Shown: positions 20,910 to 36,950 of the stretch, one piece after another | Position numbering within the stretch: position 1 is the stretch's first letter | Layout: each line of letters begins with the position of its first letter | Assembly (NCBI GenBank): GCA_963675785.1 | Contig: OY776562.1 | Coordinates: 1,504,001 to 1,568,000, forward strand | From: Anaerolineae bacterium | Lineage (GTDB): Bacteria; Chloroflexota; Anaerolineae; UBA1429 | Reading direction: 5' to 3' | DNA: 64,000 nt | Notes under the pieces: model-generated | What the model was told of the DNA's origin: nothing | Seen by the model: only the letters and a program-made list of their open reading frames with translations | The model's database searches: none | Program-made: the position numbers and the translations under genes

Positions 20910-20950
20910 AAAAATACCTTTACTATTTTCAAAGATTATCTAGTGGATGA

Positions 20951-21718
20951 TCAATCAATATCGTTTTTTTTATTGATAGAGGAAAGAACAAAACCTATCA
21001 AGTTACCAAAATCTGAAATCAAGCCAAATCCCAAGAAAAGAAATAAAAATAAATAAATTATAAAATAAGGAATAAGATCTCTACCAAAAACGCATATAGA
21101 AAATATTCCGACCAAACCTCTACAACCAATGTATATGAAAAATGTAAGGATCAAAGAAGCAAAAAAACTCAAGATGGGGTCTATAGTTATAATTGGTCTA
21201 CGAACTCGATACCCCCATTGCATTTTCACAAGCTTTCGAATTTTTCCCATGTGAAATTTGATTTGGGGAATAGTTATAGGTCCCTCACATACAAGAAGAA
21301 GATAAAACCGATTTCCTGGATTCAACAAAGGAAAATCTACAGTAACGTCATTAAGATCAGAGTTTACAGTGACTTTCATACATTCTGGTATCTTTTTTAC
21401 CAGACTCACGTCGAGAAGTCGAACACCTAGAGGGAATTCAAGAGTAACGGGTATAGATATTTGTTCTTTTGTAATATCTGTATTACCGATGTTTTCTAGT
21501 CTGCATTCGAAAACAAAAACGTTCGATACTTCTTGTCCTTTATATTTGACAACAAGAGACGATGCTGCCCTCAAAGATTGATCAATCCGATGCTGTGAGA
21601 TGAGTTCAACTTGCTCACTGAAAGCATATGCAAGAGAATCCCTGGGGTGTTTAAATACTTTCAATGCTTCTGGCAGGAGAGCAGCCAATATTGTTATAAT
21701 AAGATCATGTATATTCAA
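20951..21718 (-). CDS. low-GC membrane protein, paralog of neighbour
   Basis: RBS AAGGTG, TTG start; FECRLENIG...LEFP...LNPG...CEG...PQI core. Confidence 0.65.
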   Translation of the reverse strand: MNIHDLIITILAALLPEALKVFKHPRDSLAYAFSEQVELISQHRIDQSLRAASSLVVKYKGQEVSNVFVFECRLENIGNTDITKEQISIPVTLEFPLGVRLLDVSLVKKIPECMKVTVNSDLNDVTVDFPLLNPGNRFYLLLVCEGPITIPQIKFHMGKIRKLVKMQWGYRVRRPIITIDPILSFFASLILTFFIYIGCRGLVGIFSICVFGRDLIPYFIIYLFLFLFLGFGLISDFGNLIGFVLSSINKKNDID

Positions 21719-21829
21719 TAGAAATCACCTTAATAATGTTTTTTTATGAATTTAAGCATATTGGTAAGAAAGTAGTCAGTAAAGTGGGTTAACGTTAGTA
21801 TATTCACATGAATTCAGCGGTCACCTTAG

Positions 21830-22060
21830 CGCATCGGGTTGAACCCCGATGCCACCCAACGAACCCTGGCCCTGCGGACAGGCTCAACCCCACACTCCCT
21901 AGCCTCCGATTTATCGGATGGTTCGCAGACCTAGCACCCAGCCTTGCAAAGCAAGACAGTTCAGCCTGGTGCGTTAATCCCCTGCTTTACCTCCGAAGGA
22001 GGTGCCTATCCTAGGCCGGCGACGCAAGGCGTCGCAGACGCCAAGTCCCGGCCAAATGGC
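21830..22060. repeat. composite REP-like hairpin array
   Basis: CATCGGGTTGAACCCCGATG, AGCCTCCGA...TCGGA, CCTCC-GAA-GGAGG, GACGC-AAG-GCGTC. Confidence 0.75.
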
Positions 22061-22089
22061 ATAATGAGACCCATCGCGACAAGAAAAGC

Positions 22090-22710
22090 TCAATTCACCA
22101 ATTCTTTCACCTTAGGATTAGCCAGTTCTTCAAAGATTTGATCTGCTCCCCATGCTTGTGCAGCTGCAAAAGCGCATCTACGTTCTTGGTCATATGTCAA
22201 TTTGCCTGCCGCCTTATAAACCAAATCATGGTTGGCCTCAGCCCAAGCATGCTGAAAAAGCGTAACCACTTGAAGCTCAAAAAACTCGGGCTCCTCTACT
22301 CTGAATCGCTTCTTGACACGAGGGGGAATAAGGAACACAAAATGTTTACCCTCATACCCAAATTGCCAAGGACACTCTATGATATGCTCGTTGTCTTCAA
22401 TTGGGTTATAGTAATCACACAATGCATTTCGTATTGTATCAACATCAGACTTGTAAAAGACTATGACCCTAGCACCTATTTGATCCTGTATCTGAATTAA
22501 TGGATGGGAATACTTCGGAATACCGGGAGCTTTTTGTTTTTGCGCCTTTTCAAGAAATCTATCAACGCTCTTAGCGCGTGCACAGATACGGTCGATATGA
22601 GAAAAACCATTTAGCTGCCGCTTTAAATCAGCCTCAAGACGCTCAGCCACCGGAACCAACACATCCTCAAAACGCCGCGAATAGGTTTCTTCCAGATTTT
22701 CTGAGCTCAT
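22090..22710 (-). CDS. RelA/SpoT-domain small alarmone synthetase (no hydrolase domain)
   Basis: RAKS, QDQIGARV, GYEGKH, ELQVVT..QHAWAEANHDLVYK. Confidence 0.88.
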   Translation of the reverse strand: MSSENLEETYSRRFEDVLVPVAERLEADLKRQLNGFSHIDRICARAKSVDRFLEKAQKQKAPGIPKYSHPLIQIQDQIGARVIVFYKSDVDTIRNALCDYYNPIEDNEHIIECPWQFGYEGKHFVFLIPPRVKKRFRVEEPEFFELQVVTLFQHAWAEANHDLVYKAAGKLTYDQERRCAFAAAQAWGADQIFEELANPKVKELVN

Positions 22711-23711
22711 AGTCGCTTAACCAGCCTTTGCCGAACTATATGCCCTGTCGTCGTATATTGGACAAGCCCTTCCTGAAGGTTGACTATCTCCTTTTTAAAG
22801 GCTTCATTGAAATCCTGGGATGTGGCACTCAAGTATGCGCCATTATCGAGTATGACCCGAACATATGGAAGATATTTTTCAAGCGTTTCCTCGTCAACCT
22901 CAAAATACTCGTCAGCTATATCGGAGCTCTCCAGACAACTAATAACGAGATCAGAGGTTTCTTCCTCAATACCATACTGCTCAAGTACTCCACGAATAGA
23001 GATTGTCTTCCCTTTAAGACTGGGCAAGAGCAAAGCCATACTGACTAATTGATCCTGGATGTCAGGATCTTTAGCAAGTGCTGTCGCTTCCCTAAGAGCG
23101 TCCGTAAGGATAATCGTACCATCCACAGAAGTCGTTTGTCTCACTGAAGAGAGAAATTCTTGGGACCAGTAATCTGCTATACCAGACTGCTGACGATCCT
23201 GGGCTTTTCCAGTCCAAAAGCTCCCCAAGATCGCCAAACCCTGATATACAGCTGATTTGTAGTGCTTTGAATTCTTCATGAAAACCCGTTCAACAAACTG
23301 AACGCTAAGGCTATCTTGATCAATATCAGCCAAAACACCTTGATCTGCCGGAAAACGCGAAAACATGACCTTATGTTTTTCCCCATCGCAACCATGAACG
23401 AGAAAGAGCAAACCTAATTTAGAGCGACCCGTCGTGTAGGAACAAAGACGTCTAGCTATAGGCTCTGAAGTTAAGCCGCTAGGACTAGAAACAAAATCCA
23501 GAATTAACCCACGAGCCTCGTTAGATTGAGTGCCGTCCTCTGATTTAAACATAATCGAGATATTACAGTCGTGTTCTGCTTTGTCGTAGATATCTTTGAG
23601 CATCTCAAAGAGCTGTCCCGACAACGGGATTTCAGTCCCTCGCAGTGGCTCAAGATCCTTCTCCCCTTTTCCCGGCGGAACCAGATAACTGAAAATGTGA
23701 TCGATGTCCAT
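22707..23711 (-). CDS. hypothetical protein, possibly nucleoid-associated NdpA/YejK-like; coupled to the SAS gene
   Basis: RBS AGGAG, ATGA overlap with SAS gene; family call from a faint resemblance (GLLFL, YKSAVY, ADYWSQEFL) only. Confidence 0.6.
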   Translation of the reverse strand: MDIDHIFSYLVPPGKGEKDLEPLRGTEIPLSGQLFEMLKDIYDKAEHDCNISIMFKSEDGTQSNEARGLILDFVSSPSGLTSEPIARRLCSYTTGRSKLGLLFLVHGCDGEKHKVMFSRFPADQGVLADIDQDSLSVQFVERVFMKNSKHYKSAVYQGLAILGSFWTGKAQDRQQSGIADYWSQEFLSSVRQTTSVDGTIILTDALREATALAKDPDIQDQLVSMALLLPSLKGKTISIRGVLEQYGIEEETSDLVISCLESSDIADEYFEVDEETLEKYLPYVRVILDNGAYLSATSQDFNEAFKKEIVNLQEGLVQYTTTGHIVRQRLVKRL

Positions 23712-24014
23712 TTCAAGTCACTCCTGCGCTAGAAAAGTGTATTCATCACACAATATCAACGCCGAGAAAAGCTATACATAACATAGAAGGAGTATAACAA
23801 TAAACCAGAGATTTTCAATGGGAAGCCTCCAATAACGCGCATCTATACTGGCAATTTCGAACCATACCAAGCTAAACCAGAAATTACACAGGCCAGGCAT
23901 TCCCCTCCCCTCCCAACTCCACCTCTTTCCACCTTCACCCTCTACCAACAGCACCTCCTCTCCGCACACACAAGAACGCCAAACACCCAGGTTCAAAGAC
24001 CTGCAATCAACAAA

Positions 24015-24305
24015 AGCATCTGCCCTCCGGGCAGATTTTCCTAAGCCGAGGGCTTTAGCCCTCGGGCAGTAAAAACGGAGAGGGTTTGAACCCTCTCCGC
24101 GCGCATTTCTGTCTGTCAGCGTGGGGTTTCAACCCCACGCGCGACGTCCCCACGCCCCGCTTTACCTCCGAAGGAGGCCTATCCTAGGCCGGAGACCCCA
24201 GGCGGTCGCAGACGCCAAGTCCCGGCCAATTGCCCCCACTTTAAGCGCAGCCCTGACAAAGCCAAAGGCTTTGTCAGAGAGAATCGGTCTACCGATTCTC
24301 CCACA
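24015..24305. repeat. composite REP-like hairpin array upstream of portal gene
   Basis: CCGAGGGCTTTAGCCCTCGG, GAGAGGGTTTGAACCCTCTC, GCGTGGGGTTTCAACCCCACGC, GACAAAGCC-AAA-GGCTTTGTC, GAGAATCGGT..ACCGATTCTC. Confidence 0.85.
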
Positions 24306-24355
24306 AAAACCCCTCCCCTCCACGTGGTACCTCAACAGAAAGGAGGAACCCCACC

Positions 24356-25501
24356 TTGACCCTCTGGCAACAACGCCTCGCCGACCGCCTCTTTGGCAAA
24401 ATCATCCAAGAACGCATCACCCAGGCCGTCAAGGCCGTCGACGACGCCCAATGGCGCGCCGTCAACACCCCGCCCCTCGGCACCGATCGCCCCTGGCACG
24501 AGCACATCCAAGAGCTCGAACGCATCGAGCGCCTCTGCCACACCAACCCCCTCGCCAGCCGCATCATCTCCCTCACCACCGATTTCGTCGTCGGTCGCGG
24601 CGCCACCCTGCAGGCGCCCCAGCACCTTCACGATTTTTGGCATCATCCCCAAAACGACCTCGACCGCCGCCTCTACCGCTGGTGCGACGAACTCGCCCGC
24701 AGCGGAGAGCTCTTTCTCGTGCTCAGCCGCGTCCCCGGCAGCGGACTCTCCTACATCCGCGAGATCCCCGCCCGCTGCATCGACCGCATCGAAACCAACC
24801 CCCACGATCTCGAAGACGAGCAGCGCTATCACCAGCTCACCGCAAATGTCGATGGCCGCTGGTGGCCGGCTGCTGCCCGTCCCGGTCGCCCCCTCTGCCC
24901 CGATGACCAGGTCATGCTCCACTACGCCGTCAATCGTCCCCTCGGGGCCCTGCGCGGCCGCTCTGATCTGGCCCAACTCACCGACTGGCTAGAGCACTAC
25001 ACCATGTGGCTAGAGGATCGCGTGCGCATCAACCGCTACAAATCCGCCTACCTCTGGCACGTCACCATCAAAAACCCCACCCGCGGCGCCATCCAGGCCA
25101 AACAATCCCAATACGCCCGACCGCCCCAGCCCGGCAGCATCATCATCAGCGATGACAGCGAGATCTGGGAAGCCCTCAGCCCCCACATCGACGCCCCCTC
25201 CGTCGAGGACGACGGCCGCGCCCTGCGCCTCATGATCGCCGCTGGAGCCGGTGTGCCCCTTCACTACCTGGCCGAAACCGAATCCGCCACCCGCGCCACC
25301 GCCCGCGAACAGGCCGCCCCCACCTTTCGCCATTTCGCCCACCGTCAGGCCCTTTTCAGCCGCATCATCGAGGACCTGCTCCGTGTCGCCAGTCGCCGCG
25401 CCGGTCATCCTGAAACCGCCAGTGACCCCGACATCCACGTATCCTTCGAGCCCGTCGAGACTACCGAGAATGCGGACACCTCAGGAGACGAGCATGACTA
25501 A
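24356..25501 (+). CDS. phage portal-like protein
   Basis: RBS AAGGAGG plus TTG; NPLASRII...DFVVG.G, GELFL, HYAVN...RGRSDL, AGAGVPLHYL; directly upstream of capsid gene. Confidence 0.75.
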   Translation: MTLWQQRLADRLFGKIIQERITQAVKAVDDAQWRAVNTPPLGTDRPWHEHIQELERIERLCHTNPLASRIISLTTDFVVGRGATLQAPQHLHDFWHHPQNDLDRRLYRWCDELARSGELFLVLSRVPGSGLSYIREIPARCIDRIETNPHDLEDEQRYHQLTANVDGRWWPAAARPGRPLCPDDQVMLHYAVNRPLGALRGRSDLAQLTDWLEHYTMWLEDRVRINRYKSAYLWHVTIKNPTRGAIQAKQSQYARPPQPGSIIISDDSEIWEALSPHIDAPSVEDDGRALRLMIAAGAGVPLHYLAETESATRATAREQAAPTFRHFAHRQALFSRIIEDLLRVASRRAGHPETASDPDIHVSFEPVETTENADTSGDEHD

Positions 25502-27371
25502 CGATCCGCTCTCCGACCCTCATCGCGTCACCCTCAGCGGCGAGCTACGCCCCCGTTCGCCCGGCTGTTACACCGCTCTGCTCATCCGCGCCTGCACCGC
25601 CAACGGCCTCACCTTTGGCCCCCAGGTGCTGCGCCTGGCCGCGCCCCTCTTTGAGGGCGTCCCCGCCTTTGTAGATCACGCCCCGGGCGGCCGCTCCGTC
25701 CGCGATATGGCCGGCCTCTTCGACGCCGTCTACTACGATGACGACGCCCAGGCCGTCTATGGTCGCCTCAAGCTCTTCCCTCAGGCTGCTTGGCTGGGCG
25801 AGATGGCCTCCGAGGTCGCCAATCCCGCCATCTTGGGGCTTTCCGCCGTGCTCTGGGTTCAGCGCGATCGCCAAAATCCGGCTCATGTGGCCCGTATCGA
25901 ATCCGTCGAATCCTGCGATATCGTCGTGCGCCCCGCCGCTGGTGGAGCCATCCTAGCCCCACAGCCCACACCGCCCGCACCCGCCGCCTCAGCCCTTGCC
26001 CAAGGAGAAGTTATGTCAACAGAAAACCCCGCCGAATCCGTCCCGCAGCAACCCGAAACCGACGCCCTGCGTCAACTCGCTCGTGAGAACGCTCGCCTCA
26101 AGATCGAGGCCAGCGGCCTGCCCGAACCCCTGCGCGTCCGCCTGCAGCTGCGCTATCTGCCGCCCCAGTCGGTCCAGGGCACGCCCGAACCCGCCCAACC
26201 CCTCGATGCCGCCATCGCCGAGGCCCGCGAGGCCCTGGCTGCCGCCACCGAATCCCAAACCGTCCGCCACTTGGGGCCTCTCTCCACCATGCGCACCCCG
26301 CTGGATCGCATCGAGGCCGCCTTTGGTCAGCTCATGGGCCTCCCCCAAACCACTTCCGAGGCCGATGTGGCCCATCTCAGCGGCATCCGCGAGCTCTACG
26401 ATACCCTCACTGGCGATTGGGAGCGCCGCGGCCTCTTTGTGCCCCAGCGCGTCACCCTGGCCAACGCCACCACCACAACCATGGCCGAAGTCACCCGCAA
26501 CGTCCTCAACAAGGCCCTGCTCCAGGCCTACAACCGCCGCCCCCACTGGTGGCAGCCCCTCGCCCACGAGGAAGATTTCGCCACCCTCCAGCCCGTGCGC
26601 TGGATCGGCCTGGGCGGCTTTAGCGATCTCTCTCCCGTCGCCGAAGGTGCCGCCTACACCGAGCAAACCTGGGACGACACCGCCGAGACCGCCAGCTTTG
26701 TCAAAACCGGCAACTACATCGGCATCACCCTGGAAATGATCGACCGCGACGACGTGGCCGCAGTGCGCGCCATCCCCCAAAAGCTCGGTCTCGCCGCCTG
26801 GCGAACCCTCAGCAGCGCCGTCTCTGCCCTCTTTACCGCCAACGAGGGCCTCGGCCCCGTCCTTAGCGATTCCCACAACCTCTTCGATGCCGCCCATCAC
26901 GGCAACCTGGCCAGCGCTGCCCTCTCCGCCGATAACTGGCAGGCCACCACCGAGGCCATCTTCAAGCAGAGCGAGTACGGTTCGGCCAAGCGCCTCGGTG
27001 TGCGTCCGCGCTACTGCCTCATCCCCATCGAACTCGAGCGCACCGCTCTAGAAATCTTTACCTCCGACGTGGTACCTACAGAGAGCGCCTTTTATCGCAA
27101 CGTGCTCCGCCGCGGCGCAGATAGCGTCATCGTCGTGCCCGAATGGACCGATGCCGTCAGTTGGGCTGCTGCCGCCGATCCCGCCGATCTCGAGAGCGTC
27201 TGCATCGGCTATCGCTACGGTCGCGCCCCCGAGCTTTTTGTCGCCGATTCGCCCCTCATGGGCAGCATGTTCACCAACGACGAGATGCGTATCAAAGTGC
27301 GCTTTGTCTACGCCCTGGGCGTAGCAGACTATCGCGCCCTCTTCAAGCACAACGTCAGCAGCGGATCCTAA
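25494..27371 (+). CDS. prohead protease fused to Mu gpT-like major capsid protein
   Basis: N-terminal FVDH..RSVRD, GLS, ESCDIVVRPAAGG (maturation protease); C-terminal ITLEMIDRDD..A...IP..LG.AA.RT, LFDAAHHGNL, KVRFVYALGVADYR; RBS AGGAG, overlaps portal stop. Confidence 0.8.
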   Translation: MTNDPLSDPHRVTLSGELRPRSPGCYTALLIRACTANGLTFGPQVLRLAAPLFEGVPAFVDHAPGGRSVRDMAGLFDAVYYDDDAQAVYGRLKLFPQAAWLGEMASEVANPAILGLSAVLWVQRDRQNPAHVARIESVESCDIVVRPAAGGAILAPQPTPPAPAASALAQGEVMSTENPAESVPQQPETDALRQLARENARLKIEASGLPEPLRVRLQLRYLPPQSVQGTPEPAQPLDAAIAEAREALAAATESQTVRHLGPLSTMRTPLDRIEAAFGQLMGLPQTTSEADVAHLSGIRELYDTLTGDWERRGLFVPQRVTLANATTTTMAEVTRNVLNKALLQAYNRRPHWWQPLAHEEDFATLQPVRWIGLGGFSDLSPVAEGAAYTEQTWDDTAETASFVKTGNYIGITLEMIDRDDVAAVRAIPQKLGLAAWRTLSSAVSALFTANEGLGPVLSDSHNLFDAAHHGNLASAALSADNWQATTEAIFKQSEYGSAKRLGVRPRYCLIPIELERTALEIFTSDVVPTESAFYRNVLRRGADSVIVVPEWTDAVSWAAAADPADLESVCIGYRYGRAPELFVADSPLMGSMFTNDEMRIKVRFVYALGVADYRALFKHNVSSGS

Positions 27372-27383
27372 GGAGGTAGGTTC

Positions 27384-27557
27384 ATGGAACTGTTTACCGG
27401 CACCTGGTGGCAAGAGCTCCTCGTCCAGTTGGTCATCGCCATCCTCACCACCGTGGTGGGCATGCTCACCTACGAGGCCCGCGTCGCCGCCCCGCGAGAT
27501 CAGCAGCGCCAGGAGGAGATCGACTCCCTCACCCGCCGCACCGATCACACCCTCTAG
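27384..27557 (+). CDS. 57-aa single-TM peptide, holin-like (absent from ORF track)
   Basis: RBS AAGGAGG; MELFTGTWWQELLVQLVIAILTTVVGMLTYEARVAAPRDQQRQEEIDSLTRRTDHTL. Confidence 0.65.
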   Translation: MELFTGTWWQELLVQLVIAILTTVVGMLTYEARVAAPRDQQRQEEIDSLTRRTDHTL

Positions 27558-27573
27558 CCCTCCCCCTCTCCTC

Positions 27574-27603
27574 AGCGTCCGGCTGCCCCCACAGCCGGAC
27601 GCT
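27574..27603 (+). terminator. GC-rich hairpin ending the head operon
   Basis: 12-bp stem AGCGTCCGGCTG/CAGCCGGACGCT; no U-tract. Confidence 0.45.
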
Positions 27604-27727
27604 CCCCTTATCGCCAACATCCTCGCCGCCCAACAAAACACGGACCCCGAACGCCCATCAGCGTCCAAGGTCCGTGTAATGTTATTCTAGTTGTAGGCGG
27701 CGAGTTCCCTAATGCCGCCCCCTCTCC

Positions 27728-28975
27728 TTAGGGAAAGTTCTCCGGGTCGACTCTATCGGTGCCCACCGTGCCGCCAGCCACGCCGTACAGCGTAACCTCC
27801 CAGGCGGTGTACTGGGTCGAAGTCGTCTCAAAGGGAATCGTGGTGTCCATCTTTTGGTAGCTGGCGTTCCGCGTAAAGCGATACGTCTCCGCGCTGAAAT
27901 CCTCGCCCTTGCTGTAAAAGAGCAAATAAGTCCCGTCGACGATGCCGGTCATGTTGAATGACTCTCCGGCCCGAATATAGGCCGTCTTCACCGCCGCCTC
28001 ATCCATATTGGTGAGAATCACCAGCGCATCCGAGTCGGTGCCATTCTTGATGAGCAGTTCACCGGCGCCGCCAGGTGCATTGTCCACCAGCATCCCTGTA
28101 CCCGGCCTAAAGGGCGGCAGGGGTGTATTCGTCGGTTCCGGCGTAGAGGTCGGCGTCGGGCTGGGCCCCGGCGTCACGGTTGGCGTTGACGTCGGTGTAA
28201 GCGTCGGCGTCGGCGCGATCGCGGTCAGGTGCGCCACCTCGGCAGCCATGTCCGCTGCATCCTGAAAGACAACCTCGCTGTACGTAACAGGCTCGCCGTT
28301 GCCGCGCGTGGCCAGCCCGATATAGCCCTCGCGATTGATATCTGGCCCGAGCGGCGCCCTGGCTACCAGTTGCCGATCGATGAAAAGCCAGGCCTCGTCA
28401 TCCGTCACCCGAATGGCCACCAAACAGCTGTCGGCCACCATGAGCAGCTCCTCGTTCTGCACCAGCCACGCAACCTCGGAATCATCGATCGAATTGGCAC
28501 AGATGGCCTGCCCGTACCCGCCTATATCAAAGATCAGGCACCCGGGCGACCACCCCTCTCCGTCGCCGTAGGCCACAATGATCGCCTCGCCGCTGCCCAG
28601 CCAGTCGCTCTCCACGGTCGCTTCAAGGGTAAATGGCCCTTCGACGATCTGCTCCGACCAGGCGAAAGCCTCATCCTCGCCCTCGGTAGCGTAGGTGCTG
28701 TCCTCGTTGGTCCACAGGCTGCCACCCGTATTAAAGGACAGCGAACCAGATTGGGCCACTTCCGGCGCCACCGTAGGTTCCGTTGTCGCAGTGGCAACCC
28801 TCTTCTCCGCCGTAGGCTGCGTGGTAGCTGTGACGGCTCTGTCCACCACTGCCGTTTCGCCACCAGCATCACAGCCGGTCAGCATACCAAGCAGCAGGCC
28901 CAGCATCATGAGCTGGACGAGCGCGCGCCTTGTTAGCACGCCCCGCCAATGGCAAGAGAGTTTTGGCATGGTCAT
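27728..28975 (-). CDS. two-domain lipoprotein with PT-rich linker
   Basis: Lipobox LTGC; lectin-like beta domain; PTPT linker; C-terminal GELLIKNGT domain. Confidence 0.75.
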   Translation of the reverse strand: MTMPKLSCHWRGVLTRRALVQLMMLGLLLGMLTGCDAGGETAVVDRAVTATTQPTAEKRVATATTEPTVAPEVAQSGSLSFNTGGSLWTNEDSTYATEGEDEAFAWSEQIVEGPFTLEATVESDWLGSGEAIIVAYGDGEGWSPGCLIFDIGGYGQAICANSIDDSEVAWLVQNEELLMVADSCLVAIRVTDDEAWLFIDRQLVARAPLGPDINREGYIGLATRGNGEPVTYSEVVFQDAADMAAEVAHLTAIAPTPTLTPTSTPTVTPGPSPTPTSTPEPTNTPLPPFRPGTGMLVDNAPGGAGELLIKNGTDSDALVILTNMDEAAVKTAYIRAGESFNMTGIVDGTYLLFYSKGEDFSAETYRFTRNASYQKMDTTIPFETTSTQYTAWEVTLYGVAGGTVGTDRVDPENFP

Positions 28976-29205
28976 GGCCTACCTTATCCTGTCTGTGCGG
29001 TTGTTCCCTGTTCGTAGCCGGTCATTCCCTTGGCCCGATAGCACGAGCCTCCGAGATACTAGCGCTTGAGCCGAGCCGAGTCAATACCGAGCGCCATGCC
29101 CTGCACCAGAAAACCTTAACTTTAACGTGGTTTTTATAGAGCACTTCTTATCGCAACCTGCTCCGTCGAGGAAGTGAGTGCGGCGGTGACTTGCGGGGCT
29201 TCAGA

Positions 29206-29529
29206 TCAGGCTCGGCGATAGGTCGCGCCTCTAGTGAATAAGGGATCATCAGGTGTCGGAGTGGGTTCCCCGTCAACAATGACGTATCCCTGAGCCTCCA
29301 TCACCTGCCTGATTAAATGCCCCGTGAATAGCCTGACCCGATGCTGCTTGACAGGCTCGCCACAGATAGCCAGCAGCAACTGTCCAACGGCCCCAGCAGC
29401 GGGCTGTCTGGCGTCTGAAGCATCTGTCATCCTTTTGACGATATCAGGCCAAGTGAGGAATGCCCAGAGTCGATCTCCCCATTCGGGTGCTACATCAGTA
29501 AAAGAAGCAATGTCATAATCGTAAGTCAT
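29206..29529 (-). CDS. hypothetical protein
   Basis: RBS AAGGAG, 107 aa. Confidence 0.7.
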   Translation of the reverse strand: MTYDYDIASFTDVAPEWGDRLWAFLTWPDIVKRMTDASDARQPAAGAVGQLLLAICGEPVKQHRVRLFTGHLIRQVMEAQGYVIVDGEPTPTPDDPLFTRGATYRRA

Positions 29530-29613
29530 CGTGCTGTTTACTCCTTTTGCTTTTCTCTGCTCAACCCGAGCAAAGCGTCAGACAATCTCGTCAATATGCC
29601 AAGTACAAAAATC

Positions 29614-32097
29614 CTAATCAGATGATTCGGATGTAGCAGGTGGGGGAAAAAATGCGTCGCCACAAATGCAGTAGAGCCGATTTTTGTCAGAGTTAAACTT
29701 CAAAAGTTTTCCGCACGAACAACAGCAGAAAAGCTTGGTAAATTCGATAAAATTTTCCCAAACGTACTTCACATCACCAATGGCTGGCCACGCGTAAGGA
29801 TTGGCTTGATAGTGGCTGTAGTAATTTATGATCGAAACAGCCGACAGCCGTTTATATGCGTTTGAAGTAAATACAATATCCTTGAATCTAGGATTCAGAG
29901 TCTTTACCCGTGTAAGAAATGGTTCCCAATAGTCAAAGAGAGTACGCTGATAGTCGTGAGGCCCTCTTTTATGAGGGGTATATGCATCGTACTTCGCACA
30001 CATTTCGTCAAACCAATCTTCCATATACTGTCGAACTGCATTTCCAGCGATCTGTGAGTCCCCATCGTTTATAAGCCTAGAGATCTCATCACAGGTAACA
30101 ATCTCGGACTCCCTCCTTGGGCCCAGATCGAACTCATAACCTGTAATCCTGTCGAAACGCCAGTTTTCGCTCTGGAGTCTTTGTTTCAAATGTGTGAAGA
30201 ATCTTTCATCGTGAGTAGTGAGAAAAATCTGGAATCCCTGCATATACTCGGCTAACAGATCTACGATTCGGGCTCTGTTATCGGCATCGTATGAAGACAC
30301 GATGTCATCCAGAACGAGAAATGGAAAAGTCTTGTTGAACCGGCGCACAGCACTAAGGAAGAGAGCCAAACCAAGCGTGTTAATCTGGGATTCACTTAGG
30401 TATCCGGCTGGTGGAACAACACGATCATCGGAATGGAAGCTCACTCGAAAAGTCAGATCCCTTTTTGCCGCATCTATCCCAATATGAACATGAGGAACTG
30501 CTTCATCCGGATATATTTGCTTATATATGTATTCCACCTCACTCCTGAGTAGCGCCACAGCATCTTCCGTAAGTGCTTTCGCCTGCGTACGTATTTCGTC
30601 GGCGACTTGTCCAAACTGTTGTTCCACTTCCCTGACTGCCGCTTCACGTCTTTGTAGTGTTTCAATCTTTTGAATCGCTTCATTCAGAGCCTGTAGGTTG
30701 GCGATTGAGGTACCAATCGGCAAAGTAACTTGAGAAGCCACCTCTTCAGGCATGCTATCCAACGCTTGCGGTATCTGTGTATGCACAAACTGATCACAGG
30801 AAGAGTAGAAGTTAGTGAATTGCGAAGTCAGTTCCTGCAAATTTTTGTCGCTCTTCATCATCTGTTCACAAGTAGTATGAAGCTGTGAAGCTTGACTGAC
30901 AACCTGAGGGAGCGAAAGAGTTTCAGCCAATTGATTGACCTGTAGTAGCCCACTGTCAAGAGCTGTAAGTGTATCTTGCAAGTTTTTCCGTTCCGTCAAG
31001 CATCGTTTACTGACAGCCTCGAATTCAGCCAATTCGTCCAAGCTAACGGAAAGAGCAACGCAAGCATCATCAAGTGAGCCTACTTTAGTTTTCTCCCAAG
31101 GAGTCTGACACACAGGACAAACCTTAGGCTTTTCAGAATTCAACAAGTCTTGGGCAGCTTGCCAGACTTCCCGAAACACGCTTTGACTCGCTTCGCTTTG
31201 GGCCTGGTCTCTATCCTGTTCAGCCTTTAGACTTTGAGAAAATGTGGATTCAAGCTTGCGAATAATACTAGGGAGTGCGCCAGCTTTTTCCCCTAGTTGT
31301 CTCTTTGTTTGAACAGCCCTAGCACCCTTAGATTGCTGAACGATCTCTTCTCGGCGCTTATTTAGCAACTCGATCAGTTCAGGAATTGTCTTCGCCACAT
31401 CCTGAGGCGTAAATTTCTCTAGATGCTTTTCAGCTTCTGCCGTGCACCAGTTGAGAATTCCCTGCAAGTCAAAGGTCGAGACAGCTTCCAAAGTATGAGA
31501 ACGGATGCTATCTAGATGCTCTGAAATCTCCCGATCTAATCCTGCGTTTTTTAGCGTGTTTTGCGTTGTTTTCAGATGTGTAAGTATGTTATCAATATCC
31601 TCTATACCTATCCATTGAGAAAACTCGCTGAACTTCTCGCTGGGTGACATATCCACAACAAAATGGCGAAGGTCATGTTGACGTAAGATATTGTAGGCAG
31701 GAGCTTGCGCTAGGACTGTATCAATCTCTCCCGGTCTAGGATCAACCCTACCCGTTTGAATAGGACGTTTTGCGAATAGTCTGTCTCGGGTTTCCGTATT
31801 AATGAATTCGATAGATACCTCTGGAGCTATGCCCTTTTCTTCTGCCAACACGTGAGGGATTGCATGTTTTCCACCAAGTTCACTGTCCGCCCCTCCCTTT
31901 CCAAGATGCTTGACCTCGCCATCAAGCGAGAACATGTACTCAATGGCATCAGCATATCCACTTTTTCCGCATCCATTTGGACCAAAAATCGCAATTGAAA
32001 CTGGTTTCTCCTTTTTATAGCCAAGTTCAAATTCACCAGCCCTATTCAACACACCTTTTACTCCAGAGATCGAAATGGAAGAGACAATCCACGTCAT
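29614..32097 (-). CDS. Rad50/RloC-like ABC ATPase with zinc hook and C-terminal HEPN-like domain
   Basis: Walker A GPNGCGKS, coiled coil with CPVC, signature LSESQ, Walker B LVLDD, LTTHD; C-terminal NAVRQYME...INYYSH and CCSC...CIC; low GC. Confidence 0.78.
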   Translation of the reverse strand: MTWIVSSISISGVKGVLNRAGEFELGYKKEKPVSIAIFGPNGCGKSGYADAIEYMFSLDGEVKHLGKGGADSELGGKHAIPHVLAEEKGIAPEVSIEFINTETRDRLFAKRPIQTGRVDPRPGEIDTVLAQAPAYNILRQHDLRHFVVDMSPSEKFSEFSQWIGIEDIDNILTHLKTTQNTLKNAGLDREISEHLDSIRSHTLEAVSTFDLQGILNWCTAEAEKHLEKFTPQDVAKTIPELIELLNKRREEIVQQSKGARAVQTKRQLGEKAGALPSIIRKLESTFSQSLKAEQDRDQAQSEASQSVFREVWQAAQDLLNSEKPKVCPVCQTPWEKTKVGSLDDACVALSVSLDELAEFEAVSKRCLTERKNLQDTLTALDSGLLQVNQLAETLSLPQVVSQASQLHTTCEQMMKSDKNLQELTSQFTNFYSSCDQFVHTQIPQALDSMPEEVASQVTLPIGTSIANLQALNEAIQKIETLQRREAAVREVEQQFGQVADEIRTQAKALTEDAVALLRSEVEYIYKQIYPDEAVPHVHIGIDAAKRDLTFRVSFHSDDRVVPPAGYLSESQINTLGLALFLSAVRRFNKTFPFLVLDDIVSSYDADNRARIVDLLAEYMQGFQIFLTTHDERFFTHLKQRLQSENWRFDRITGYEFDLGPRRESEIVTCDEISRLINDGDSQIAGNAVRQYMEDWFDEMCAKYDAYTPHKRGPHDYQRTLFDYWEPFLTRVKTLNPRFKDIVFTSNAYKRLSAVSIINYYSHYQANPYAWPAIGDVKYVWENFIEFTKLFCCCSCGKLLKFNSDKNRLYCICGDAFFPPPATSESSD

Positions 32098-32309
32098 GAT
32101 TCGCCTCCGGTAGCTCTTTTCTCTGCTATATCAAGTAGATCCTTAGCCAGATTAGACCCAGCCTTTGAATGAATCGAAGCTGAGTCCAAATGAAGACGTG
32201 TTATCTGTACAATCTCTTGATCAAACTGATTGCTATCGACTAATGCCTCATCAAAGAGTTTCCGCAACAACTCAGATGCTTGAAATAACTCGGATGATTG
32301 CTCAGACAT
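32094..32309 (-). CDS. 71-aa protein coupled to the ABC ATPase
   Basis: RBS AAGGAGG; ATGA overlap with the ATPase start. Confidence 0.7.
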   Translation of the reverse strand: MSEQSSELFQASELLRKLFDEALVDSNQFDQEIVQITRLHLDSASIHSKAGSNLAKDLLDIAEKRATGGES

Positions 32310-32565
32310 AAGACCTCCTTGGCAAGATTCACTAGGGAATATCCCCGCTAGTCATCAAATCGTCAGATCAAAGCAATACGAAACACAACTCACCTTAGCT
32401 AAACGCCAAAACACAAAAGCCAAGTGTTCTAGTCCTCTCACACAAAAACATTATGTCTATCACTATACTCGAATCCTCTTCGATAATCAATAAAATGACT
32501 TAAGACAAATAGCCTACTCGTATAGCCACCAAACTCGCCTTCCCCAACCTCACCCACCCTCACTT

Positions 32566-32636
32566 GGAGGTACCCCATGCCCCTCACCCTGTCCGAACAC
32601 CTTGCCCGCCTGCGCGCCACCCTCGGCGATTCCCCC
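32566..32636 (+). repeat. 71-bp direct repeat (orphan copy of RBS and 5' end of gene 33917)
   Basis: Identical to 33906-33976: GGAGGTACCCCATGCCCCTCACC...GGCGATTCCCCC. Confidence 0.92.
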
Positions 32637-32638
32637 AC

Positions 32639-33646
32639 CTAATCTTTGGCCGCCAACTCTCTTTCGAGCGCAGAGATGCAGTCTGTTATCTCCTTCACCC
32701 AGTCGTCGTACCCAAGGGTTTCTGCAATCGCCAGTGCCTGCTGGTAACACTCTTGGGCCTCGGCCAAGCTGTTCAGGGTATAGTACAAGCTGCCCATGCT
32801 CACCAGTATATCCGCCTCACCCTCCAGATAGCCCACCTCGTGGGCGGTTTCTAGTGCCTGCTCATAGAGCTCCAGCGCATGATACCTCTCGGCACGATCT
32901 TCGGTGTATCTTGCGCGGTTGGTGAGCGTCATCACCTCGCTAACCCCGTCGCCCGACTCTCGGGCCAGCGTGAGCGCTTGCTCATAGATTTCCAGAGCAT
33001 CTTCCTTTGAGCTCATCCAGGCGATGTTGTTGAGTGCCATAACCTCACCTGCCGAGTCGCCGATTTCACGAGAAATCGCGAGCGATTGCTCATAGGCGTC
33101 CAGGGCCTTGTCGTACTGCAACTGATCGAGGTGCACCTGGCCAATAGTGTTGAGCAGCATCGCTTGGATCCTCGGGATGCCCAGTTCACGGATGACGTCG
33201 AGCGACTGCTCATAGAATTCCAGGGCCTTGTCATACTCTTCCTGCAAATACCACGTAGCGGCAATGTTCCAGAGCGAGTCCCCCTCGGCGTATGGGTCGT
33301 CCGCCTCGCGGGCTAGCGTCAGCGCCCGTTGGTAATAGGCCCGCGCCTTGCGGTAGCGGCCCTCCTGGTAGGCGGCATTGCCGGCGGCGGCCACATCCTC
33401 AAACGTGTCGTTCATTGTGGTTATAGCGACTGTCGTGGTGGCAAGACCATCCAGTCTTTCGCTCACCCAGGCCCGTGGCCGGGGATCTGTGGCCATTCCT
33501 ATCAGAAACAGAACCACAAGCAGGGCCGCAAAAAGAATGATCCTCCTGAAAAGCCATGATTCGTGCTGCCAGCAGTAGCGTCGCCCTGGCACGGCTCGTC
33601 TTTTACATGCGTCACCATTGCTCATCAAGAACTGGCATTGTTTCAT
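32639..33646 (-). CDS. membrane-anchored TPR protein with N-terminal C3H zinc-finger-like motif
   Basis: CQ.......GDAC.........YCWQH, TM helix, repeated ALE.YEQ.L...RE.GD TPRs. Confidence 0.8.
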   Translation of the reverse strand: MKQCQFLMSNGDACKRRAVPGRRYCWQHESWLFRRIILFAALLVVLFLIGMATDPRPRAWVSERLDGLATTTVAITTMNDTFEDVAAAGNAAYQEGRYRKARAYYQRALTLAREADDPYAEGDSLWNIAATWYLQEEYDKALEFYEQSLDVIRELGIPRIQAMLLNTIGQVHLDQLQYDKALDAYEQSLAISREIGDSAGEVMALNNIAWMSSKEDALEIYEQALTLARESGDGVSEVMTLTNRARYTEDRAERYHALELYEQALETAHEVGYLEGEADILVSMGSLYYTLNSLAEAQECYQQALAIAETLGYDDWVKEITDCISALERELAAKD

Positions 33647-33916
33647 CTTTACCTCTGGGTAATAGCAATCTACTTGTCCCGGCCATCGTTGTAGCGCCTG
33701 CTTCTCGAAATCGCATCTACAAGGGACAGGGCGAATCTGCGATGTGTCGCAATAGTTGGGCTAGAATGGCACCAAAAGGCCGATACAGGAACCGAGTAGC
33801 ATTCTAGCGTTGCCCAGGTTCATCCGCAAGCGTTCCCCTAAAAGGACACGCTTCTAGAGTAAACCATCGCACCCCACTCAACCACCATCCATCCGCCCCT
33901 CACAAGGAGGTACCCC

Positions 33917-34546
33917 ATGCCCCTCACCCTGTCCGAACACCTTGCCCGCCTGCGCGCCACCCTCGGCGATTCCCCCGCCGAACTCTGGACCGACGACCAG
34001 CTCACCGACTGCCTGCGCACCGCCCTGGCCCGCCTCGATCAGTCCCTTCCCAGCCAGCAGCAAGCCGTCCTCACCCTCATCCCCGGCACCCCCACCGTCG
34101 ATCTCTCCTCCCTCGGCCCGGACGTCCGCCCCTACGCCGTCGTCTACCCCTACGACCCCGCTTCCCCGCAAAATTTTCAAAACCGTGTCGGCTGGCACCA
34201 AATCGAGAATATACTCCATATACTCGGTATACTAACTATAGATAAAATGTTGCTTCTTTGTTACGAATGCCCCTACGCCCTCTCTGGCCTGGATGGCGCC
34301 ACCTCAACCACCCTCCCCGCCCCCTACGAAGCCGCCTTGCAGGTGGGCGCCTGCGCCCAGGCCTTCAACCTGGCCCTCATCGGGGCCGTCAACCGTGCCG
34401 CCGTCAACCGCCCCTACGCGTATTACCGTGAGGCAAAGTCCGCTGCCGAAAGCACCTTCACCCGCTGGCTCGACGCCCAGGTGCGCCAGCAGTGCCAATC
34501 CCTCAACAACACCCTCTCCTGGGAGCAAGGAGCGCACCATGGCTAA
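33917..34546 (+). CDS. phage head-tail adaptor-like protein
   Basis: RBS AAGGAGG; LARLRATLGD....WTDDQL...LRTAL and TTLP..YEAAL resemble adaptor proteins; same codon style as portal and capsid genes. Confidence 0.55.
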   Translation: MPLTLSEHLARLRATLGDSPAELWTDDQLTDCLRTALARLDQSLPSQQQAVLTLIPGTPTVDLSSLGPDVRPYAVVYPYDPASPQNFQNRVGWHQIENILHILGILTIDKMLLLCYECPYALSGLDGATSTTLPAPYEAALQVGACAQAFNLALIGAVNRAAVNRPYAYYREAKSAAESTFTRWLDAQVRQQCQSLNNTLSWEQGAHHG

Positions 34547-34757
34547 AGTCGCCCGAGCCCGCATCATCAGCTACAACGAATCCACCCACCGCGCCGCCTT
34601 GCTGCTGCTGGCCAACCCCCAGGTGCGCCTGGAGGGCGTGCCCGTAGTGCGCGGCCTCACCGGCCTGGCCCCCGGCGATCATGCCGTGGCCCTCGTCTGG
34701 CCCGAGGCCAGCGCCCTGGTGTTGGCCCTCTGGGATGAGAGCGAGGTGGGCGCATGA
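34539..34757 (+). CDS. 72-aa OB-fold-like protein resembling baseplate spike N-terminal domain
   Basis: RBS AAGGAG; ARIISYN....RA.L......LEGVPV...L.PGDH.V; overlaps both neighbours. Confidence 0.5.
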   Translation: MAKVARARIISYNESTHRAALLLLANPQVRLEGVPVVRGLTGLAPGDHAVALVWPEASALVLALWDESEVGA

Positions 34758-36697
34758 GAACCCTATCACCGACCTTGCAGGCGGCGCTGGCCGCCAAGCA
34801 GCCTCGCCCGGTCGTCTCGCTGGAGGTGGAGGACCACCGCCGACGCCTGCGCCCCCTGGGCAGCGGCGCCGCCTCCTCGCTGCCCCACCACATGCTGGCC
34901 CTGGGCGGCTCCCTGCTGCGCTGCTGTCTGCAAAGCGGGGGCCTCTATTGGGCCGTGGTGGCCGATCCCGCGGAGGAGGCCAACTGGCCGCCTGTTTGGC
35001 AGCTTGCGGTCAGCGATGGCGCCATCCAAGCCGGAGATGTGGCCCTTGCCGTGGCCCCCGCCCAGCCCGACCGTTGGCTGGTGGCTTATCAACAGCTCAG
35101 CGGAGCCATCCGGGTGGCCTACACCGAGGATGCTGGCACCACCTGGGCCACCCCTTTTACCGCCGCCACCGCCGAGGTGGGTGCCAGCATCGCCCTGGCG
35201 GGCAGCCTGGCCCTCTACAACGTGGGCGGCACCCTCTATGCGCGGCCCTGCCGCAACGACCTGGGCGCCCCCATCGCCTGGAGCGGGGGTCGGGCGCTCA
35301 ACCCCGATTTGCCAGCCTTTACGGCCGTGCAGGGTTTGGCCGCTTGCCCAGAGCCCGGCACCGCCGCGGGTTACCTCTGCTTGGCCTGCCTGGACGGCGC
35401 CCTTTACGGCTTTCGCTACAACCTGGCGGCGGAGACCCTGAGCGATCTGGCTGCCCTGCTGCCCGGCGGCGATGCCCCCGCATCGGCCTTGGCCAAACGC
35501 TGCCTGCCCGCCCTGTGCATCCGCAACACAGAGGTGTATGCCACCGTGCTAGATGCCTTTGGCGACAGCGACCTGACCGCCTGGATGCAGCCGCTGCTGT
35601 TGGGCGGCGAGGTGAGCCGGTTCCCGCGGATGGCGCGCCTGGCCGCGCCGGATATGGCCTGCACCCAGGAGGAGCGGGTGGTGCCGGCGGTGCTGGCCAG
35701 CGGAGAGCGGGCGGGGTGGCTGTTCCTGGCAGATCAGGGGCGGGGGATGGTTAGCCCGGCCTACAGCGCCGAGGAGAACCGCCTGGGGGCGCTGGTGCCC
35801 AGCCAGTTGAGCCTGCAGGTGGATGAAGGGGGCTCGCGATTGAGCGTGCAGGTGCCCAACTGCGCGGGGTGGCTGACCCCGCAAGAGCTGCCAGCCTGCC
35901 AGCCCCTGGCAGAGGTGCGGGCCACCCGCGGACTGTGGACGGCCAGCGGCGCGGAGACCAGCCCACTGCCTCCCCATTACCTGACGCGCGTGGAGGTAAC
36001 GGCGGAGGTGGTGCAGCTGGAGGCAGTGGACGGTTTGGGGCTGCTGGCGCGGGTGCACCCGGCAGAGACGCTGGTGTACCAGGGGCGCACGCTGGGCCAC
36101 ATTGCAGAGGAACTGGCGGCCTTGGCGGGCCTGGAAGTGGTGGGCAGCAGTGACGCGCTAGAGATGATGGTTCCCCGCTATGCCCTGGCACCGAGCCGCT
36201 CGGCGGGTGAGGCACTGGTGGCCCTGCTGCGTGACTACGGCCTGGGCGCCCGTTGCGACACCGCTGGCCGCCTGCAGCTAATCGACCTGGGCGCGGCCAC
36301 TACCGCCAACCTGACGCTGGCAGCGGGCGACCTGCTGGATTGGCGCTGGTCCACCACCCTGCCAGAGGCCAACACGGTGCGGGTGCTGGGCGGCGAAGGC
36401 GACGGCCTGCTGTGGAGCGCGGGCACGGGCGCGGGGCTGAACAGCGGCCTGCTGCTGCCGCAGGTGCTCACCGATGAGACGCTGTGCAGCGAGGCGCAGG
36501 TGCGGGCCAGGGCCGAGGCCCTGTGGCAGGCGGCGCAAGCCAGCACTGGCGGTGCAGAGGTGGTGCTGCGCCTGCACCCCGCCCTAGAGTGGGGCGACGC
36601 GGTAAGTGTGAGGGGCGTGGTGCGGCGGGTGCAAGGGCTGAGGGAGAGGTGGGTGGCAGGAAAGAGGGTGTGGCAGAGTGTGCTGGTGTTGGGGTAG
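34754..36697 (+). CDS. phage baseplate hub/tail-like protein with Asp-box N-terminal region
   Basis: MRTLSPTLQAAL start, Asp box YTEDAGTTW; C-terminal EAVDGLGLL...TLGHI..EL...AGL, A..RAEA, HPALEWGDAV typical of hub proteins. Confidence 0.6.
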   Translation: MRTLSPTLQAALAAKQPRPVVSLEVEDHRRRLRPLGSGAASSLPHHMLALGGSLLRCCLQSGGLYWAVVADPAEEANWPPVWQLAVSDGAIQAGDVALAVAPAQPDRWLVAYQQLSGAIRVAYTEDAGTTWATPFTAATAEVGASIALAGSLALYNVGGTLYARPCRNDLGAPIAWSGGRALNPDLPAFTAVQGLAACPEPGTAAGYLCLACLDGALYGFRYNLAAETLSDLAALLPGGDAPASALAKRCLPALCIRNTEVYATVLDAFGDSDLTAWMQPLLLGGEVSRFPRMARLAAPDMACTQEERVVPAVLASGERAGWLFLADQGRGMVSPAYSAEENRLGALVPSQLSLQVDEGGSRLSVQVPNCAGWLTPQELPACQPLAEVRATRGLWTASGAETSPLPPHYLTRVEVTAEVVQLEAVDGLGLLARVHPAETLVYQGRTLGHIAEELAALAGLEVVGSSDALEMMVPRYALAPSRSAGEALVALLRDYGLGARCDTAGRLQLIDLGAATTANLTLAAGDLLDWRWSTTLPEANTVRVLGGEGDGLLWSAGTGAGLNSGLLLPQVLTDETLCSEAQVRARAEALWQAAQASTGGAEVVLRLHPALEWGDAVSVRGVVRRVQGLRERWVAGKRVWQSVLVLG

Positions 36698-36950
36698 TGT
36701 GTTTATGCGCTTCGCCAGGGACTGGACGCCACAAGCGGCGTCTGGTGTCTCCTGGCGGGGAAGAGCGTCCTGCGGACGCCAAGCGAGGAGAAGGTCATCG
36801 CTGAACGCGTGCACCAGGCTAAATGCGAACTCTGCGAGTTCGCTTGTGAGAAAGGATGCAAGAGCAAGCTTTGCATCCTTTCTCAAAGACAAGGCCAGGC
36901 CTTGTCAGTGCTACGATTGCAAAGCCTGCTCTGCGGGCAGGCTCTAGGAG
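36697..36950 (+). repeat. long composite repeat A, copy 1
   Basis: GTGTGTTTATGCGCTTCGCCAGGGA...GCGTCC-TGC-GGACGCC...GCGAACTC-TGC-GAGTTCGC...GGGCAGGCTCTAGGAG; recurs at 39111, 42411, 44100 and inverted at 42651. Confidence 0.85.

Follow-up and report, generated by a model that had tools for sequence, protein, structure and literature searches.

Why would a bacterium maintain a small, intact set of phage-like head and hub genes? The question is raised by a stretch of 64,000 nucleotides from the chromosome of an Anaerolineae bacterium of the phylum Chloroflexota (assembly GCA_963675785.1, contig OY776562.1, positions 1,504,001 to 1,568,000; henceforth the window), which contains six co-oriented plus-strand genes, arranged as two blocks, at positions 24356-36697. 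An original prediction, made from the letters of the window, saw in them a candidate domesticated gene transfer agent (GTA)-like system, and its account of six intact genes reading in the same direction is confirmed. These genes appear to be the structural half of a larger system, whose other half, coding for a terminase and a sigma factor, is located 59 kb away. We propose that the two halves together probably constitute a host-domesticated, phage-derived system for a DNA-packaging particle of the GTA or viriform kind, which is vertically inherited within a single Anaerolineae family. A decaying prophage is disfavored because the set is too conserved, intact and congruent with the host, and a mobile element because the set is too dispersed and bare. 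Its parts would suffice to make a head, fill it and cap it with a short tip, and together with the link to the SOS switch of the host they match what is expected of a GTA or a related particle kept by its host. In what follows G000 is the genome to which the window belongs, and other labels in G, L, g and f denote sampled genomes, loci, genera and families, respectively.

Structural genes of the window

The first block begins with the gene for a portal protein of 381 residues (24356..25501, plus strand; phrog_10963, 3.6e-29; PF05136, 2.7e-5), which starts with a TTG codon preceded by AAAGGAGGA and has orthologs of 53-64% identity in relatives. Overlapping its stop is the start of a gene (25494..27371, plus strand) for a 625-residue fusion protein, in which an N-terminal S77-like prohead protease candidate is connected by a linker to an HK97-type major capsid protein. 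The capsid forms the C-terminal half (PF25209, Phage_capsid_4, 5.9e-30; phrog_4523, 8.3e-45), and a PDB sequence search with the profile of the fusion yielded a single weak capsid match (0.028). The N-terminal ~160 residues showed no sequence matches in Pfam or the PDB; the assignment as a protease candidate is instead based on a feature match of the N-terminal 175 residues to Peptidase_S77 clusters in the Atlas (0.95; 29 of the 30 named matches) and on His62, Ser117 and Asp142, which are invariant across the alignment. Thus, in the protease-capsid fusion that had been predicted the capsid half is identified by its family matches, and the protease half is named from these two lines of evidence. 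The conserved position after the capsid gene is occupied by a gene (27384..27557, plus strand) for a single-pass membrane protein of 57 residues, with a homolog at the same position in 15 of the 16 genomes inspected; it matches no Pfam or PHROG family, and a holin-like role for it is only a guess.

The second block opens with a head-to-tail adaptor of 209 residues (33917..34546, plus strand; PF24175, SU10_adaptor, 9.6e-9), orthologs of which come after the capsid gene in relatives. It is followed by a 72-residue protein (34539..34757, plus strand), whose AlphaFold2 (AF2) model is a five-strand OB barrel (pLDDT 92.6). Generic OB folds are at the top of its Foldseek matches (IF1, 4e-3), with phage spikes ranking lower (Mu gp45, 1.8e-2; P2 gpV, 3.3e-2; the R2 pyocin spike within 0.02-0.04). 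The description of this gene as spike-like therefore stands as regards the OB fold, while the spikes are outranked by generic members of that fold, and the protein is consistent with a candidate central-spike OB domain. Three relatives (G013, G014 and G023) have a homolog with a C-terminal extension of ~130 residues. The block ends with a hub protein of 647 residues (34754..36697, plus strand; AF2 model, pLDDT 85.8, pTM 0.81; phrog_177, baseplate hub, 6.1e-5). Its N-terminal ~300 residues form a beta-propeller in the model, which evolves rapidly, with 25-31% identity between genera, and its C-terminal ~330 residues form a hub of the gp27/Mu gp44 type, the best Foldseek matches being 7aef_q (7.6e-18), Mu gp44 (1wru, 2.6e-16) and T4 gp27 (~1e-9), with target-normalized TM values of 0.6-0.7 for single-domain hubs. 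A complex prediction for hub residues 300-647 and the 72-residue protein, run without controls, returned a score of 0.00 and is evidence neither way. The earlier calls for the portal, adaptor and hub-like genes are borne out by these PHROG, Pfam and Foldseek matches. The particle had also been termed possibly tail-less, for which tube-less is the better word, given that the adaptor, OB-fold protein and gp27-type hub are always kept. The nearest record from a cultured phage is Microcystis phage Mae-JY22, with 35.7% identity over the capsid half, and the hub found no match among 50,697 phage records.

The absence of other phage genes from the vicinity, also part of the original prediction, holds as far as tested, in that no integrase, repressor, tube, sheath or lysin was detected among 20 open reading frames (ORFs) scanned in the flanks and insert of the window, nor any tRNA in the window; a terminase does exist outside it, as described below. 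Likewise, across the 11 loci compared, no integrase, replication or repressor gene adjoins the module, and no sheath, tube or tape measure gene adjoins the head genes. PF04985 has no match in G000 (siphovirus-type tube families were not searched), and the matches to PF04984 and PF04865 belong to a separate contractile injection system (G000:C1:1249228-1274231), ~263 kb before the portal.

This injection system is complete and includes an AAA ATPase, eCIS_core, a Pvc16_N cap, a sheath, three gp19-type tubes, CIS_tube, a VgrG-like spike (GPD and OB domains) and Baseplate_J. It has a normal GC content of 50-58% and is followed by an ORF of 2106 residues. We considered it as a source of the missing tail and rejected it on account of its own spike and its normal GC content.

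A separate terminase operon with a linked sigma factor

As query for the terminase we used a 510-residue gene product encoded before the portal of a divergent second copy of the module (L022) in genome G004. G000 contains a sole homolog, the gene for a large terminase (TerL; G000:C1:1587418-1588887, minus strand; 51% identity to the L022 gene), which lies beyond the window at a distance of 59 kb from the portal. It is related to phrog_38 (5.8e-9), with its ortholog in G008 matching PF17289 (4.7e-5), and the motifs RQAGKNE, LLEGDEAQ, WGTAWT, D288, D310, D364 and HDD, comprising Walker A and B, the coupling motif and the RNase-H-type nuclease, are invariant. TerL was found in 17 of 24 genomes of the family. 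In those genomes with both TerL and the capsid on one contig the two are 11-142 kb apart. TerL is separated from the portal by 59 kb in G000 and by 53 kb in G020; the interval is shortest in G008 (11 kb) and longest in G019 (132 kb) and G014 (142 kb). A terminase located elsewhere in the genome, which the original prediction had called for, is thus present both here and in relatives.

TerL is the central member of a conserved trio forming an operon (G000:C1:1586714-1589317, minus strand). Directly upstream, and overlapping the TerL start, is a gene for a small protein of ~130 residues, which in the Atlas belongs to unnamed clusters only, the members of known phylum being mostly from Chloroflexota (0.94). 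Directly downstream is a gene for an extracytoplasmic function (ECF)-like sigma factor of ~200 residues with a sigma-70 region 4 (PF08281, 2.4e-6; weak ECF match). This sigma gene is found behind TerL in 17 of 18 loci of the family, as opposed to none of six TerL loci that are from outside the family or belong to second, prophage-like copies.

A promoter overlapped by a LexA box

The region before the small gene displays a TTGACA-like box, a spacer of 17 nt, a TATAAT-like box and, immediately thereafter, the palindrome TAGAAC-N4-GTTCTA. Both the sigma70-type promoter and the box are present in all 12 terminase loci that extend far enough upstream (the remaining six end before the promoter region), and the box is missing from each of the five outside-family or second-copy TerL loci scanned over that region. 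GAAC-N4-GTTC is the LexA operator type used by Gram-positive bacteria. In G000 the same type of box occurs ~50 nt before the gene for a protein with a LexA DNA-binding domain, as well as after similar promoters at two further places. Since it precedes the genome's own lexA, we predict that the box at the terminase operon is the host LexA operator of the GAAC-N4-GTTC type; at the level of sequence, this would place the operon under host regulatory control. Five of 17 genomes also have a LexA-type box close to the portal (within ~230 nt); the window has none there.

At G000:C1:1388396 and 2347819, a TTGAC-N17-TATAAT promoter with a perfect LexA box precedes in each case a small unannotated gene. 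The gene at the second of these places (G000:C1:2347903-2348427) has a GC content of 65% and a GC content at third codon positions (GC3) of 0.79, as high as that of the module.

Phyletic distribution and gene order

The capsid fusion was detected in 19 of the 24 other genomes of the family, all from different genera except for two of g3, and in one of 16 other families sampled. The capsid domain itself occurs in 30 of the 42 family genomes, with carriers in 21 of the 24 genera, at 61-70% identity and with one such copy per genome, as expected of conserved single-copy orthologs. When a gene was scored as present for strong matches only, the capsid, TerL and hub were all present in 23, all missing in 11 and partly present in eight of these 42 genomes. 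Truncation at a contig end accounts for most of the partial cases, and in at least three of the eight the contig stops inside the module; as the genomes are kin and many are fragmented bins, these counts are descriptive and not a test. Losses have occurred inside the genera g3, g8 and g20, and some genomes without the system are 99% complete. Given that the two loci vanish together, we argue that they are one functional unit.

The order portal, fusion, small membrane protein, adaptor, OB-fold protein and hub is kept, and the genes are contiguous, in ten loci from nine relatives; no further flanking gene is common to more than three of 11 loci. Among public genomes we found related loci in 108 relatives, with 78 of the 80 listed being titled as metagenome bins of Anaerolineae or Chloroflexota. 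Relatives of at least ~48% identity have the hub, and a terminase was never seen upstream, whereas those at 32-47% identity mostly have the TerL-portal-capsid arrangement usual in phages and yield no hub match. In a tree of the capsid domain with 81 rows, the window belongs to a clade of 30 rows (support 99). Of the 19 rows of the tree with a hub match 18 fall in this clade, and of the 21 with TerL adjoining the portal none does; TerL is detached in all 12 clade rows with at least 5.5 kb of upstream sequence. The prophage-like relatives, with TerL, portal and fusion contiguous, all fall outside this clade. The closest homologs are therefore of the same stripped architecture and not complete prophages.

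A compact version was recovered in family f34 (G074, L198), where a promoter with a LexA box, a small ORF, TerL, portal, fusion, adaptor and hub occur within 8 kb. No sigma gene was seen at this locus, the small ORF has no detectable similarity to the small pre-terminase protein (BLASTP E 0.5), and the last ORF of the contig resembles a host gene by its N-terminal sequence, unchecked against families. Hub homologs are more widespread: of 301 genomes sampled throughout the class 48 have one, with a concentration in certain families. Their other arrangements include TerL, an unknown gene and the hub in f2 and, in f29, a hub immediately preceded by a LexA-like box. Because hub homologs extend beyond the family of the window, the system may have originated before that family.

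In family f33 (G155) a gene for a Y-family (ImpB/MucB) polymerase, a typical SOS gene, is located directly after the hub gene (L197:12216-13478).

Vertical descent, selection and composition

We then compared the module with RpoB as a marker of the host. For 17 taxa of the family, patristic distances from the combined portal and capsid correlate with those from RpoB (r 0.81; none of 5000 permutations as high), and the trees have 5 of 14 splits in common (random mean 0.24, maximum 3; none of 2000 as high). For TerL, r is 0.66 (reached in 2 of 5000 permutations) and 2 of 13 splits are common. Compared with the window, relatives retain 67-72% identity in RpoB, 61-70% in the capsid domain, 53-64% in the portal and 54-66% in TerL, and no sampled lineage could be a recent donor. 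The reading frames of the module are all intact, with stops only at the natural C-termini. The ratio of nonsynonymous to synonymous rates (dN/dS, NG86) in the ten closest pairs is 0.06-0.29 for the capsid, 0.14-0.32 for the portal, 0.21-0.58 for the hub and 0.19-0.43 for the adaptor. Host-congruent phylogeny and low dN/dS, two marks by which a domesticated system was to be told from a decaying prophage, are thus both in evidence and, along with the orthologs and the separate terminase, support the original preference for domestication.

The genes of the module are the most GC-rich of the genome. Against a genomic GC content of 53.6%, the two module blocks are two of only three 2-kb windows, out of 1608, that reach at least 64%. 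Relative to the medians of 1146 long ORFs, GC at the first codon position (GC1) is 0.66-0.75 versus 0.61, at the second (GC2) 0.47-0.55 versus 0.43, and GC3 is 0.78-0.86 versus 0.59. The module, TerL and sigma genes are also more GC-rich than rpoB in every relative. A search for further parts of the module by means of high GC content recovered 27 runs of at least 62%, and ten proteins from five of these were ordinary metabolic genes, including a pyrimidine operon, GH32 and PfkB.

Weighing the alternatives

Of the rival explanations, the one that survives best, though we regard it as rather unlikely, is an SOS-induced particle domesticated for a purpose other than gene transfer, such as a PBSX-like killer, a means of altruistic lysis or a non-delivering head, kept for competition or as a public good. 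All the evidence for domestication and for LexA applies to it equally, a sequence by itself being the same for delivery and non-delivery, and the fast-evolving propeller of the hub would fit a targeting part. The combination of SOS control with a dedicated sigma-like factor also has a precedent in SigN of pBS32, which is transcribed from a SigA-dependent, LexA-repressed promoter and whose reported regulon leaves out the prophage-like region (PMC6751061). However, the parts that are best conserved, the terminase, portal and capsid, are ones that a killing particle could do without, and neither a toxin nor a lysin was found linked to the system.

It is considerably less probable that we are dealing with a mobile element, namely a small capsid-forming satellite or mini-phage that spreads among Anaerolineae, with the window bearing a disrupted copy. 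The compact f34 version with TerL attached, the occurrence of hub homologs across the class, the GC content far above that of the host, the few branches in conflict with RpoB and the divergent prophage-like second copy in G004 all have a natural place in such a scenario. It is difficult to reconcile with the absence of integrase, replication and repressor genes next to the module, with the single such copy per genome and with the trees congruent with the host; furthermore, no capsid domain found anywhere exceeds 70% identity, a level comparable to the 72% of RpoB. Loci that are 11-142 kb apart cannot move as a unit, and this dispersal, together with the lack of integrase and replication genes among the scanned ORFs, would leave the system with no means of self-propagation. 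Least probable is a functionless, decaying prophage remnant that is intact by chance, for although the module is interrupted by a 6.36-kb insert, has been lost repeatedly, and in two genomes shows a hub match in two adjacent pieces (G055) or a truncated TerL (G029), its six genes, TerL, sigma factor and small protein are intact at 50-65% identity in more than 20 genera, dN/dS in the closest pairs is well below 1, the catalytic motifs are invariant, the regulatory box is conserved, and the insertion left the adaptor gene whole by duplicating its 5' end.

Several observations also weigh against the domesticated DNA-packaging particle that we favor. The trees are in part discordant, with a group of G001 and G014 (support 98 in the module tree) absent from the RpoB tree and G011 pairing with G003, and some transfer within the family may have taken place. 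In random distant pairs dN/dS of the hub and adaptor rises to 0.6-0.9 at a dS of 0.9-1.0, which we read as dS near saturation, and the strong GC3 excess would also fit a foreign origin or repeated re-import. The system is dispensable, since 11 of 42 genomes do without it. Hubs of the gp27 type are normally mounted on a tail tube, which is not encoded here, the tube and sheath genes of the genome being found only in the separate injection system, and to our knowledge a hub docking directly to an adaptor is without precedent. Neither an endolysin nor a proven holin was found. The small pre-terminase protein matches no Pfam or PHROG family, and it is a candidate small terminase by virtue of its position and an Atlas lead to the T5 small terminase of 0.79, which is below 0.9. 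Finally, k-mer and motif inspection did not establish a sigma-specific promoter motif upstream of the portal and adaptor genes: the best 8-mer, TTC[AG]TCCC, in 10 of 16 upstream sequences versus a shuffle maximum of 8-9, and a loose GTAGATA-like element are both too weak to claim.

A possible mode of action

If the system indeed builds a DNA-packaging particle for its host, we envisage the following course of events. DNA damage would cause cleavage of LexA and thereby open the sigma70-type promoter of the terminase operon, the sigma factor of which might then activate both structural operons in trans. The fusion protein would build a procapsid on the portal and perhaps trim itself by way of its S77-like protease domain, whereupon TerL would fill the head. 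The cargo is likely to be mostly other DNA, probably that of the host, because the system's own genes, at 11-142 kb from each other, are spread beyond what one head could hold. The adaptor, a hub trimer and the OB-fold protein could cap the portal as a short tube-less tip, with the fast-evolving beta-propeller of the hub as the likely receptor-binding part, and release would presumably be by lysis. The compact LexA-controlled operon of the f34 type might represent the older state, from which the family of the window split the operon and recruited a sigma factor to couple the pieces.

In its most specific form this amounts to an independently evolved GTA of Chloroflexota, minimal, tube-less and of about nine genes, that arose when an ancestral LexA-controlled 8-kb operon was split and its parts were coupled by a recruited ECF-type sigma factor, and in which DNA damage triggers the packaging and export of host DNA. 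We advance this version tentatively, as a possibility that may well prove wrong in one or more of its parts.

Comparison with known systems

The GTA of Rhodobacter capsulatus (RcGTA) and its kin similarly consist of phage head and packaging genes kept by the host, which are inherited vertically under purifying selection, occupy several loci and respond to host regulators. Beyond the general HK97-type head we detected no sequence kinship with RcGTA, whose siphovirus-like tail includes a tube and tape measure, in place of which we find the adaptor, OB-fold protein and hub. Unlike in RcGTA, the control here would lie in a LexA box on the terminase operon and a linked sigma factor, and the host phylum is Chloroflexota. 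RcGTA clusters are reported to have GC1 and GC2 raised relative to the host, but not GC3 (PMC7360931). GC1 and GC2 are thus raised in both cases, whereas GC3 is strongly raised only in the present system.

Among SOS-induced particles, PBSX has the sigma-like Xpf and packages host DNA. PBSX and SigN resemble our system in that DNA damage, through a host-controlled switch, acts on a dedicated sigma-type factor that drives phage-like genes, as we suggest to be the case here. PBSX is a contiguous 28-kb element with a contractile tail; the present genes, by contrast, are split, include no tube or sheath and show no sequence kinship to it. The capsid-forming phage-inducible chromosomal islands (cf-PICI) have a small portal, protease, capsid and connector set without a full tail, and are mobile islands with integrase, replication genes and dependence on a helper phage. 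The structural set is alike in the two, but we detected neither integrase nor replication genes in the present case, nor any sign of a helper phage, and the module descends vertically. The hubs of Mu (gp44), T4 (gp27) and VgrG share the fold of the C-terminal ~330 residues of the hub described above (Foldseek E 7.6e-18 to 1e-9), and an OB-fold gene is its neighbor, as with Mu gp45 or P2 gpV. Unlike them, our hub is fused to a propeller, has no tube, sheath or wedge genes beside it and follows an adaptor of podovirus (SU10-like) type.

We know of only a handful of independent domestications of phages as GTAs, none of them in Chloroflexota, and among the papers listed by a literature search none dealt, in its title or the opening of its abstract, with a GTA from Chloroflexota or Anaerolineae, mentions in body text being possible. 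What is new here is the conserved trio of small protein, TerL and sigma factor, the promoter overlapped by a LexA box, the co-occurrence and co-loss of the two loci and the compact f34 version. As far as can be judged from genomic data, the system is a strong candidate for a new, independently evolved GTA-like particle. Its very small part list could define the minimum for a DNA-packaging particle, including a tube-less head-to-hub junction, and the proposed logic leading from LexA to the sigma factor to the structural genes predicts induction by DNA damage. The architectures found in different families (compact operon, split loci and outright loss) form a natural series that illustrates how a domesticated virus comes to be dismantled and rewired. 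Chloroflexota are abundant in sediments, digesters and wastewater and are almost without genetic tools; should such particles prove to transport host DNA, genes would have a route of exchange in this major uncultured lineage, for which the particles might also serve as a delivery tool.

The insert and the module junctions

The two structural blocks are separated in the window by a lineage-specific insert of 6359 nt (27558..33916), which is absent from nine of ten loci of relatives compared. Its genes were correctly placed on the minus strand by the original prediction, which counted six of them where we find five clear ORFs (27728-28975, 29206-29529, 29614-32097, 32094-32309 and 32639-33646). 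The largest of these (29614..32097, minus strand) codes for an LmuB-like SMC-type ATPase of the Lamassu kind (PADLOC LmuB, 1e-37; PF02463, SMC_N, 9.9e-15; AAA_21, AAA_23), the start of its gene being overlapped by an ORF of 71 residues, and another (32639..33646, minus strand) for a tetratricopeptide repeat (TPR) protein (TPR_12, 1.2e-31). The insert genes have a GC content of 42-62%, compared with 64-71% for the module. At 32557..32657 (plus strand) the insert contains a duplicate of the ribosome-binding site and first 22 codons of the adaptor gene, followed by a stop, which forms a direct repeat of 101 nt with 33897-33997 (89% identity, about 80 nt exact). This repeat is a footprint of the insertion event. 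Tolerance of insertions, as had been supposed, is real and recurrent, for G020 bears its own insert of ~5 kb at the same head/hub junction.

Low-GC islands (34-45%) both adjoin and interrupt the module (window 20037-23711 and 29206-32309), the adjoining one encoding a protein with a RelA/SpoT domain (22090-22710; PF04607, 5.9e-13; PADLOC PDC-S33). The junctions of the module seem to be landing sites for defense-type genes. Short GC-rich hairpin runs, resembling repetitive extragenic palindromes, are found at both ends of the module (window 24000-24330 and 36700-36950). Contig depth spikes in these flanking repeats, with a peak of 1187 at 24126, and the two sides are joined in contigs from other runs; hence, the repeat family is abundant in G000 and its relatives. 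A contig joint that skips the entire module (24065->36713; X5, X6; contigs of four runs) was rejected as a repeat artefact, because its sides comprise only 37 and 25 letters within hairpins of very high depth that are present at both ends.

The N-terminus of the TPR protein carries a Cys...G..C...A..G...C..H motif, which closely resembles the zinc-ribbon-like N-terminus of the small pre-terminase protein in 6 of 11 relatives read (for instance L026:199-666, L030:2994-3509 and L033:1005-1487). The motif is absent from the small pre-terminase protein of four relatives and of G000; the eleventh relative, G014, was read in a wrong frame and does not count either way.

Prophage-like copies and an additional small gene

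An extra small gene, whose product ends in ...YDTT.N.L..SNGT.WETV, occurs in five relatives (L017:9447-9677, L135, L144, L006 and upstream of the G008 portal), where it either separates the capsid gene from the adaptor gene or precedes the portal. No such gene was seen in the module region of the window, to which the search of G000 was confined. The divergent second copy in G004 (L022, on G004:C264) is 35-42% identical to the module and comprises TerL, a portal of 551 residues, a fusion of 794 residues and an adaptor preceded by a long fibre-like ORF, and it has the look of a true prophage relative. In addition, a single metagenome bin contains four near-identical prophage-like sets of TerL, portal, capsid and adaptor (L112, L115, L119 and L128), which suggests either that the element is active or that the bin combines several strains.

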